64,000 nucleotides of DNA, taken from contig JBKHHE010000003.1 in NCBI GenBank assembly GCA_046539305.1, positions 1,369-65,368 of the forward strand, in the 5' to 3' direction. The position numbers were made by a program, and so were the translations under genes. Under the pieces are notes generated by a model. The model saw only the letters and a program-made list of their open reading frames with translations, was not told where the DNA came from and ran no database searches. Source of the DNA: Candidatus Aenigmatarchaeota archaeon. Its GTDB lineage: Archaea > Aenigmatarchaeota > Aenigmatarchaeia > PWEA01. This document shows, one piece after another, positions 21,097 through 21,896 of this stretch (the stretch's first letter is position 1; every line of letters starts with the position of its first letter).

Positions 21097-21252
21097 ATGT
21101 CTTCGAGAAAGACGAAAGGCAAGAAAAAGAAGCTAGTTAAGAAGGGCAGTCTCGGCGATGCGCCCGTCTGGGCCTCTATAAGGAAGTACGGAATGAAGAG
21201 AAGCAGGACCAGAAGAATTCGTGTCAACAAGGGCAAGCACTGGAGAGAATGA
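21097..21252 (+). CDS. rpl39e: 50S ribosomal protein L39e (not in the ORF track; below 60 aa)
   Basis: My translation is MSSRKTKGKKKKLVKKGSLGDAPVWASIRKYGMKRSRTRRIRVNKGKHWRE. It sits in the conserved position upstream of L31e. Confidence 0.85.
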   Translation: MSSRKTKGKKKKLVKKGSLGDAPVWASIRKYGMKRSRTRRIRVNKGKHWRE

Positions 21253-21896
21253 TTACCATGGAAGAGAACGTTTTTTCGGTCCCGCTAGATGTGAAGAAAG
21301 TAGAGAGAAGGAACCGTACAGCCAGGGCTGTGCGAGAGGTGAAGAAGTTTGCCAGGAAGCGAGCTGACAAAAAGGTGAAGCTGGACCAGGAGCTAAACGA
21401 TATTTTATGGGAGAAAGGCGCACAGAAACCTCCTTCTTCAATCAAGGTCAGGCTCGTGGACTCTGGGGAATACGTTACGGTTCAACCCCCCAAGAAGAAG
21501 CTCCCCTCGGAGGAGGAGTTCGAGTGCGAGGAATGTGGTAAGACCTTCAGTACTGAACAAGGACTGGGGGTTCATGTTTCCAGAGCGCACGAAGAGGAGG
21601 AAGAAGAGGAAGAAGAGGAAGAAACAAAGGAAGAGAAGGAAAAATATGTTTGTGAAGTCTGTGACAGGGAGTTTGACACCAAGAGAGGACTTTCTATACA
21701 CGAGTCGCAGGCGCACAAGGGCATAGACGAGCAAGAGACAGAGAGGTACGAGGAGGTTCTAAGCGGCACTATAACAGAAGCGAGGGAAGTTATAGATGAT
21801 ATGGAAAACCCTGACTTCGAAGCTCTTCTGGAGATCGAAGAGGAGAACAAGGACAGGAAGGGTATGAAGAAGTTCCTCAGAGAGAGCTTGGATTGA
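21249..21896 (+). CDS. rpl31e: 50S ribosomal protein L31e fused to two C2H2 zinc fingers and a C-terminal helical module
   Basis: The N-terminal ~85 aa are L31e-like ('FSVPLDVKKVERRNRTARAVREVKKFARK...ILWEKGAQKPPSSIKVRL'). These are followed by 'FECEECGKTFSTEQGLGVHVSRAH' and 'YVCEVCDREFDTKRGLSIHESQAH', then '[44 protein letters not shown]'. Confidence 0.8.
   Translation: MITMEENVFSVPLDVKKVERRNRTARAVREVKKFARKRADKKVKLDQELNDILWEKGAQKPPSSIKVRLVDSGEYVTVQPPKKKLPSEEEFECEECGKTFSTEQGLGVHVSRAHEEEEEEEEEEETKEEKEKYVCEVCDREFDTKRGLSIHESQAHKGIDEQETERYEEVLSGTITEAREVIDDMENPDFEALLEIEEENKDRKGMKKFLRESLD

Follow-up and report, generated by a model that had tools for sequence, protein, structure and literature searches.

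Can a ribosomal protein carry classical zinc fingers and, if so, what might these do on the ribosome? The question is raised by an open reading frame (ORF) at positions 21249-21896 of a 64,000-nucleotide (nt) stretch of DNA (the window, hereafter) from a Candidatus Aenigmatarchaeota archaeon (NCBI GenBank assembly GCA_046539305.1, contig JBKHHE010000003.1, positions 1,369 to 65,368 of the forward strand). The ORF begins as ribosomal protein eL31 (family L31e) and continues, without interruption, into two C2H2 zinc fingers separated by a poly-Glu linker and, finally, into a small helical module. As described below, it appears to be the functional eL31 gene of the organism, its extension is conserved across an entire family of halophilic archaea, and the helical module recurs on a second ribosomal protein of the same genome as well as on a wide array of other proteins.

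An eL31 gene with an acidic, multi-domain extension

Assignment to eL31 rests on profile, fold and gene position alike, and no second L31e is encoded within the window. The Pfam family Ribosomal_L31e (PF01198) matches aa (amino acids) 14-69 with 46.7 bits (cutoff of 25). The AlphaFold2 (AF2) model, built on a 13-sequence alignment, aligns in Foldseek with archaeal as well as eukaryotic eL31 chains, and its N-terminal domain superimposes on eL31 of M. acetivorans with a target-normalised template-modelling (TM) score of 0.78-0.80 and a root-mean-square deviation of 2.6 Å. Canonical archaeal eL31 (e.g., 9NRI chain BZ and 6SKF chain Bc) has in common with the protein the core fold (TM 0.73-0.80), the W-x2-G-x3-PP motif and the place before aIF6; canonical proteins, however, are only 81-94 aa long and end where the tail described here starts, the latter adding ~130 aa. 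The score against the NCBIfam equivalog for this family (NF002258) is 60.3 bits, under the cutoff of 68, and this is why the protein is named "C2H2-type zinc finger protein" at NCBI. Two start codons are candidates: ATG 21249, which overlaps the upstream stop codon as ATGA, and ATG 21258, at which the NCBI model starts and the conserved sequence block of the homologues begins as well.

The C-terminal extension is, in the predicted structure, a very acidic and flexible tether that carries three small, independently folding domains in a beads-on-string arrangement (Table 1). Both fingers fit the motif C-x2-C-x3-F-x5-L-x2-H-x4-H exactly and are its only matches in a six-frame translation of the window, the number expected by chance being 0.0 (200 shuffles). 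Pfam reports two stretches each of zf-C2H2 (PF00096; 38.3 bits vs. a cutoff of 25.2) and zf-C2H2_4 (39.3 bits vs. 27), while the match to the dsRNA-binding JAZ/U1-type zinc finger (PF12171; 29.4 bits vs. 22.6) covers just profile positions 2-17 of 27, i.e., the Cys knuckle. A beta-beta-alpha fold is modelled for both fingers, with strands at aa 88-89 and 96-97 and a helix from aa 100 in finger 1, and strands at aa 130-131 and 138-139 and a helix at aa 142-152 in finger 2, at a predicted local distance difference test (pLDDT) score of ~74-83. Low-confidence linkers (pLDDT <50) occupy aa 81-85 and 114-127. The C-terminal part is modelled as a bundle of short helices (pLDDT 87-91 in the whole-protein model), and the last 51 aa, when modelled on their own, reached a predicted TM score (pTM) of 0.74 in addition to the pLDDT listed in Table 1. 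The pTM of the whole protein is only 0.37, which suggests that the domains have no fixed mutual packing. The net charge of the tail is -28, compared to +9 for the core, with each finger contributing -2, the linker -11 and the module -9.

The fusion is real and lineage-wide

The window derives from a single metagenome-assembled genome (MAG), and a real frame break of the relevant kind does occur between L24 and the module in an older Lake Tyrrell assembly (see below). It could be argued, then, that a missed stop codon or frameshift during assembly or annotation has joined L31e to a separate zinc-finger gene; we can give this explanation almost no weight, for the following reasons. A protein database search returned 13 full-length homologues (protein clusters) that are 44-100% identical to the query, every one of which combines L31e with C2H2 and is listed at NCBI as [quoted passage not shown]. 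When a single genome from each GTDB species was scanned, the full architecture was recovered in nine further MAGs (L001-L009) that originate from various sampling campaigns and several sites. In eight of these independent assemblies the ORF is complete, in frame and free of stops, and in the ninth (L008) it is in frame up to the end of the contig; the operon order is also the same in all nine, except that the downstream part is missing at contig ends in L008 and L009. A separate product starting within the tail is improbable, given that its first internal Met does not come before aa 185, and selection spans both the junction (junction peptide, e.g., LPSEEEFECEECGK) and the tail. The MAGs with homologues include PWEA01, the namesake of GTDB family f_PWEA01, for which the name Haloaenigmatarchaeaceae has been proposed as a family of Aenigmatarchaeota (DPANN) that adapted independently to extreme halophily, has a genome of ~1.5 Mb with 48% GC, and probably leads a symbiotic lifestyle (bioRxiv 10.1101/2024.03.10.584303). 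On the genomes available, the L31e-finger-module fusion is lineage-wide in Haloaenigmatarchaeaceae.

The extension also appears to be under purifying selection at least as strong as that acting on the eL31 core. Over nine coding sequences, amino acid identity was 74% for finger 1, 76% for finger 2 and 66% for the module, compared to 61% for the L31e core, and the ratio of non-synonymous to synonymous differences per site (pN/pS) was 0.24 for the module and 0.32 for the core, with both fingers lying lower still (Table 1). It is important to note that these are rough measures: synonymous sites are saturated (pS ~0.76-1.09, values above ~0.75 not being interpretable), and hence only pN and pN/pS are given here in place of dN/dS. 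The linker is the least conserved part of the protein.

These results partly agree with what an initial annotation, made from the letters of the window alone, had proposed. It had described an ordinary L31e fused within one ORF to two fingers that fit the classical motif exactly, with a poly-Glu linker between them and a helical module after them, and each of these elements was borne out by the Pfam matches, the motif scan and the confidently modelled small helical bundle. It had also asked whether the fusion is lineage-wide or unique, for which the nine additional species-level genomes point to the former, and whether the zinc-finger part might be a separate gene in homologues, for which there was no sign in the nine other assemblies. 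Its operon (S19e, PDCD5-like, L39e, L31e, aIF6) stands in all positions except that of L39e, the ORF in question (21097-21252) having no family match. Finally, its author knew of no other L31e with such an extension; none was found in the searchable literature either, but the 13 clusters and nine further genomes share the fusion. The roles it had suggested, namely binding of rRNA or mRNA or a moonlighting activity, are hypothetical; the data speak against a TFIIIA-like array that reads specific sequences, yet leave the choice of ligand wide.

One finger subfamily on many hosts

The initial annotation had further held that classical C2H2 fingers are rare in archaea, which is not so in this lineage. 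Its fingers constitute one subfamily, [FY]xC[ED]xC[GD][KR]xF[DS][TS][KE][RQ]GLx[IV]Hx[SA][QR]xH, in which the spacing is always H-x4-H and the hosts include L31e, S24e, uS3, membrane proteins, DsbA-like proteins and a nucleotidyltransferase-like protein. The helix positions T-[KE]-[RQ]-G-L-x-[IV] are the same across these unrelated hosts. Among the homologues, the number of fingers is 0, 1 or 2, and the inter-finger spacer is 18-25 aa of poly-Glu/Lys, with no TGEKP-type linker. The near-invariant helix positions, together with the long poly-Glu spacer, disfavour binding to specific sequences as an array and favour one conserved ligand instead. That is, by their signature the fingers qualify as classical C2H2 but not as TFIIIA-like arrays: they have the signature and the predicted beta-beta-alpha fold in common with the TFIIIA/Kruppel type (PF00096), and differ from it in being only two, in their poly-Glu spacer, in a helix surface that does not vary with the host, and in their net acidic charge.

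A few additional occurrences are worth recording. In MAGs of Aenigmatarchaeota and Nanohaloarchaea (loci L010, L013, L015 and L016, with matches near 4001, 2283, 1506 and 3536, respectively, as well as L011, L014 and L018), fingers of the "FDTKRGLS-H" kind make up the cytoplasmic head at the N-terminus of DsbA/thioredoxin-like proteins and of single-pass membrane proteins, and membrane proteins that look similar by eye bear the helical module at the head position in place of the finger. MAG PWEA01 encodes a 457-aa protein (L017, 2702-4075), nucleotidyltransferase-like by eye, with a C-terminal C2H2 finger of the same type, and the Asgard MAG Ca. Borrarchaeum weybense encodes a protein (L019, 3107-4087), PCNA-like by eye, with one C2H2 finger, of a related type, at its C-terminus.

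The helical module is a promiscuous domain

The module can be described by the consensus DYEE[ILV][LV]SGT[VI]xE[AV]Kxx[IV]xx[LM]xxPD[YF]xxLLExExx[GN]K[DN]RK[TG][LM]Kx[WFY]L, with membership defined as a profile match plus the invariant E33 and R39 and the PD helix cap; by this definition there are two copies in the window, one on eL31 and one on eS24 (Table 1). An exhaustive profile search recovered 238 representative clusters at a threshold of E<=1e-3, 81 of which also pass E<=1e-10, while a module-profile search of a word-indexed database returned 2 matches only, i.e., exhaustive searching was needed for the full family. Across 167 non-redundant copies, E33 and R39 are 100% conserved, K15 is 89% and K37 86% conserved, and a basic patch, K37-x-R39-K40-x-x-K43, is retained within acidic surroundings. 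The RKG(M) subtype, to which the copy on eL31 belongs, is found on L31e or S24e in 26 of its 28 copies.

The hosts of the module are diverse. Among 147 representatives, the ribosomal Pfam partners are L31e (12), S24e (11), L32e, L24, S3 and L22, and the other partners are RNA polymerase A'', Gins51, OapC, KaiC-type and MoxR ATPases, and a caudoviral prohead protease. The module is C-terminal on ribosomal proteins and N-terminal on single-pass membrane proteins of ~200-235 aa; it also occurs on the cytoplasmic C-terminal tails of membrane proteins, alone, and in two to five tandem copies. It co-occurs with the finger on uS3 (P0140; finger plus module), on a membrane protein (P0132; module plus two fingers) and on a KaiC-type ATPase (P0066), which has one finger and several modules (the local scan placed three above threshold, and the exhaustive search detected four stretches). 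Among the sources that bear a name are Nanohaloarchaea (L31e, RpoA'' and P0132) and Altiarchaeales (L32e). In the main ribosomal operon of a Lake Tyrrell J07AB contig (L024), which, judging by its name, is presumably nanohaloarchaeal, a 366-aa uS3 ends with the module. Based on its hosts, the module is a mobile and promiscuous domain of DPANN archaea that is absent from Pfam, NCBIfam and the Protein Data Bank (PDB).

Searches for a known family gave no match in Pfam (E up to 10), NCBIfam or PHROGs, and Foldseek found no significant fold match in the PDB (best E 7.8) or in BFVD, where the top entry, an uncharacterised protein of a Halorubrum tailed virus (E 1.8, TM 0.71), may be a true relative but proves nothing. 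Two candidate identities were rejected. For MA3 (Pdcd4/eIF4G), the PDB profile search reached only E=0.32 over 27 residues, corresponding to the first hairpin of the Pdcd4 MA3 domain, the Foldseek match to 2kzt was not significant (E=8.3), and Pfam had no MA3 match; for SAP, HeH or HhH, there was neither a Pfam match up to E 10 nor a Foldseek or PDB sequence-profile similarity.

Several further proteins with the module came to our attention. At 4484-5204 of the same Lake Tyrrell contig, a 67-aa module ORF overlaps the L24 gene (189 aa) in a different frame; either the frame truly changes here, or a frameshift of the assembly has divided what is an L24-module fusion. What had seemed to be a standalone module gene beside ribosomal genes (P0022) turned out to be the frame-shifted 3' end of an L24 gene; a module that does stand alone (P0023, from MSBL1) has an uninformative neighbourhood. 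In two caudoviral prohead protease (Peptidase_S78) proteins (P0122 and P0158), a long acidic tail comes after the module, suggesting its use by viruses of halophilic archaea as well. A recurring family (P0024, P0087, P0103, P0128, P0141, P0142 and P0157) combines an N-terminal winged-helix-like domain and a long coiled coil with one to five C-terminal modules.

A second copy on eS24

The second copy in this genome lies at the C-terminus of eS24, without a finger, within a canonical rpoE'-spt4-S24e-S27ae operon (Table 1). This eS24 is labelled "hypothetical protein ACLFTQ_02105" at NCBI because the protein has no NCBIfam match. S24e proteins came up in the L31e homology search through the C-terminal third of the query only. 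In related organisms, S24e has one C2H2 finger plus the module, the finger being 58-75% identical to finger 2 of L31e. The similarity of the two module copies could, in principle, have resulted from recent gene conversion; however, third codon positions are merely 47% identical between the copies, which rules out this possibility and indicates that selection has kept the copies alike. We also considered that S27ae might be absent after S24e and a finger might serve as its substitute, but this was wrong: S27ae is present directly downstream. At 59 aa, it is readily overlooked at the usual ORF-length cutoffs.

The module is probably older than the fingers on eL31

In a sample of 117 L31e clusters, 74 were canonical (<=100 aa), 26 had the C-terminal module and no finger, and 17 had other, unrelated extensions; C2H2 fingers were found on none of the sampled L31e outside the Haloaenigmatarchaeaceae clade. 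Given that the module occurs without a finger in 26 clusters and the fingers are confined to this clade, the most economical reading is that the L31e-linker-module arrangement is the older one, to whose linker Haloaenigmatarchaeaceae later added one or two fingers. In P0013, a member of this group, finger 2 was subsequently lost. The fingers are, on this distribution, a lineage-restricted and probably younger insert and the module the widespread partner.

What might the extension do?

We tentatively favor the hypothesis, with a probability of about 45%, that the heads tethered to eL31 on the tunnel-exit side bind a common ligand, preferably nucleic acid in a non-sequence-specific manner. eL31 is located at the tunnel exit (PMC4508901), and its core would anchor the fusion on this side of the 50S subunit, with the tether giving the heads the range to scan its solvent-facing side and catch one common, conserved ligand. 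The preferred candidate for the latter is a nucleic acid recognised without sequence specificity (the rRNA surface, mRNA or other RNA), which would be contacted through the K37-x-R39-K40-x-x-K43 patch of the module and the basic Lys/Arg residues at the start of each finger helix. The working mode might resemble that of the (HhH)2 domain of haloarchaeal eL32, which is carried on an acidic linker. A nucleic-acid ligand is favored because the hosts of the module are enriched in RNA- and DNA-handling proteins; because the basic patch has been kept in an otherwise acidic module (R39 in 100% and K37 in 86% of the copies); and because eL32 of H. marismortui consists of HHH_5, an acidic linker and the core, with the module taking the place of HHH_5 in an eL32 from Altiarchaeales.

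Several observations weigh against this hypothesis. Every element of the tail is net acidic, which is unusual for nucleic-acid binders, although this objection is softened by the acidity of the whole proteome and by the existence of lysine-rich versions of the tail in seemingly non-halophilic relatives (P0020 and P0035). The module has no detectable sequence or fold likeness to SAP, HeH, HhH or any solved structure, and it also occurs on the heads of membrane proteins and on a viral prohead protease, for which protein-protein docking fits at least as well. Finally, L31e of Ca. Nanohalococcus occultus is 73 aa long, is directly followed by aIF6 and has no module; that is, the fusion is variable and, in some relatives, dispensable.

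The main rival, which we consider somewhat unlikely, holds that the module, and perhaps the fingers, serve as protein-protein adaptors, either for a single protein partner common to all hosts or for one another, thereby linking ribosomes (through eL31, eS24, uS3, uL22 and uL24), RNA polymerase, parts of the replisome and membrane proteins. The diversity of the hosts speaks for such a role, since several of them do not act on nucleic acids (the cytoplasmic heads of membrane proteins with a single pass, DsbA-like proteins, ATPases of the MoxR and KaiC kinds, and a viral prohead protease), as does the finding that the N-terminal head of what seems, by eye, to be one membrane-protein family is a finger in some cases and a module in others. 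The acidity of the domains and the surfaces that are invariant across hosts would likewise fit one conserved partner. uL22 and uL24 ring the ribosomal exit tunnel, as eL31 does, so three of the hosts lie around the tunnel, and on eL31 an adaptor could recruit a nascent-chain or targeting factor at its exit. However, eS24 and uS3 are far from the tunnel exit, and thus a role specific to the exit cannot account for all hosts; the lack of likeness to known interaction domains such as UBA or MIT, the enrichment of RNA- and DNA-handling hosts, and the positional equivalence of the module to the HhH domain of haloarchaeal eL32 weigh against an adaptor as well. Alternatively, the hyper-acidic tail might act in cis as an aid to solubility and assembly that shields the basic eL31 core in a cytoplasm with molar K+ before it enters the ribosome, the folded domains merely capping or stabilising the tail (compare ubiquitin on eS31 and eL40 and the acidic insertions of halophiles). 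The charge difference between tail and core (-28 vs. +9) in an acidic proteome, the mostly very basic ribosomal hosts, the extreme, salt-in halophily of the lineage, and the dispensability of the fusion in some relatives are all in line with such a shield. Under this scenario, however, one would not expect the linker to be the least conserved part and the fingers and module to be more conserved than the core, lysine-rich and non-acidic versions of linker and module to exist (P0020 and P0035), or the module to be found, also as tandem repeats, on non-ribosomal proteins that are already acidic; further, a simple charge shield has no need for residues that are invariant across hosts. For these reasons, the shield seems quite improbable to us.

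Even less probable is a moonlighting, sequence-specific regulator, in which free L31e would use its two fingers to bind a DNA or mRNA operator in the manner of TFIIIA or Kruppel, for instance to autoregulate ribosomal protein operons. The finger signature is classical, and extraribosomal autoregulation by ribosomal proteins is well known and provides a precedent. Yet the poly-Glu spacer of 18-25 aa stands where a TGEKP-type linker would be expected, the "recognition" positions of the helix are near-identical on unrelated hosts and hence do not code for different targets, and homologues carry 0, 1 or 2 fingers. Beyond eL31 itself, it is intriguing to hypothesize that the module and its companion finger make up a DPANN-wide tagging and docking system. 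Its heads, on flexible tethers, would be displayed by several surface ribosomal proteins of the two subunits, by RNA polymerase, by components of the replisome and by the cytoplasmic ends of membrane proteins, would attach to a single hub ligand or to one another, and would have been copied as a tag by the viruses of these archaea. We regard this as an unlikely, speculative extension; if true, the system would physically organise translation, transcription and membrane in ultra-small, symbiotic cells.

Comparison with known systems and implications

Fusion of accessory domains to ribosomal proteins is, as a kind, already known from haloarchaeal eL32-HhH and from eukaryotic ubiquitin. A close parallel to the favored nucleic-acid-binding role is L32e of H. 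marismortui (PDB 1S72 chain Y, 241 aa; NCBIfam NF009401), which, as in the L31e fusion, displays a small helical accessory domain on an acidic linker, and differs from the latter in that its extension is N-terminal, consists of HHH_5 (a recognised nucleic-acid-binding fold) and lacks zinc fingers. Some haloarchaeal eL32 depositions hold just the C-terminal ~142 residues. In one eL32 from Altiarchaeales (P0121), the module is found at the very N-terminal position that (HhH)2 occupies in haloarchaea.

Other parallels exist as well. Ubiquitin, an autonomous small domain, is fused to ribosomal proteins of both subunits in one organism (Ub-eS31 and Ub-eL40), a trait shared with the module on eL31 and eS24; ubiquitin, however, is an N-terminal domain of known fold and role that is removed by cleavage, whereas the domains on L31e and S24e are C-terminal and show no evidence of cleavage. 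The acidic stalk proteins (aP1 and bL12) display a conserved terminal element on the ribosome by means of an acidic, flexible linker. The analogy is one of mechanism only, the stalk proteins having no sequence relationship to the L31e fusion; they sit at the stalk base and have translational GTPases as their ligand, in contrast to the hosts of the module at the tunnel-exit side and on the 30S body. Neither C2H2 fingers on a ribosomal protein nor a single uncharacterised domain on six ribosomal proteins plus RNA polymerase were found described in the searchable literature.

Taken at face value, a whole family of extremely halophilic DPANN archaea encodes eL31, and often eS24, with zinc fingers and an uncharacterised folded domain. 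The module has repeatedly been joined to other proteins, namely six ribosomal proteins, RNA polymerase A'' and replication proteins, and is for this reason a strong candidate for a general accessory role in the way archaea process genetic information. There is also a practical consequence: since the public names of these proteins are "C2H2-type zinc finger protein" and "hypothetical protein", surveys of ribosomal proteins in DPANN could score L31e and S24e as missing. Some nanohaloarchaea can be grown in co-culture, and in these the ribosomal role of the module may be open to experiment.

Genomic context and features of the window

The gene order around L31e is Rpr2, S19e, a PDCD5-like dsDNA_bind protein, a small basic ORF, L31e, aIF6 and FtsY. 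The small basic ORF (21097-21252) is 62-86% identical across nine homologous loci and had no family match in Pfam, NCBIfam or the PDB; it is L39e-like by position and conservation only, and may represent a divergent L39e that profile models overlook. The coordinates of all features are provided in Table 1.

Table 1. Features of the L31e and S24e loci, in coordinates of the window
Feature	Position	Strand	Remarks
Complete ORF (eL31 core, C2H2, poly-Glu, C2H2, helical module)	21249..21896	+	215 aa from ATG 21249, or 212 aa from ATG 21258
eL31 core	21258..21497	+	aa 1-80 in 212-aa numbering; net charge +9; Pfam PF01198; Foldseek
C2H2 finger 1, FECEECGKTFSTEQGLGVHVSRAH	21519..21590	+	Pfam, AF2, motif scan; pN/pS 0.18
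Poly-Glu/Lys acidic linker	21591..21644	+	net charge -11; low pLDDT; length and sequence vary among species
C2H2 finger 2, YVCEVCDREFDTKRGLSIHESQAH	21645..21716	+	"TKRGLS-H" type, shared with S24e and membrane proteins; pN/pS 0.19
C-terminal helical module, ~50 aa, RKG(M) subtype	21738..21893	+	AF2 pLDDT 93.4 (predicted); promiscuous domain family
aIF6, downstream neighbour, conserved	21913..22584	+	PF01912, 187 bits
Small basic ORF in L39e position	21097..21252	+	stop overlaps ATG 21249
eS24 (141 aa) fused to helical module, without finger	36181..36606	-	PF01282, 44.1 bits vs. 24.5
Module copy on eS24	36187..36336	-	71% aa and 74% nt identical to the L31e copy
S27ae, 59-aa zinc ribbon directly downstream of the S24e-module gene	36009..36188	-	overlaps the S24e stop by 8 nt
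Spt4	36614-36853	strand of operon	canonical rpoE'-spt4-S24e-S27ae operon
RpoE'	36823-37362	strand of operon	canonical rpoE'-spt4-S24e-S27ae operon

The proteome of the window is acidic, with a median isoelectric point of 4.94 (58 ORFs), and its GC content is 49.5%. Elsewhere in the window, Rfam matched a tRNA over 117 nt at 15728-15844 (+) with 53.7 bits, and ARAGORN reported no tRNA anywhere in the window; the matched region may be an intron-containing or otherwise atypical archaeal tRNA.

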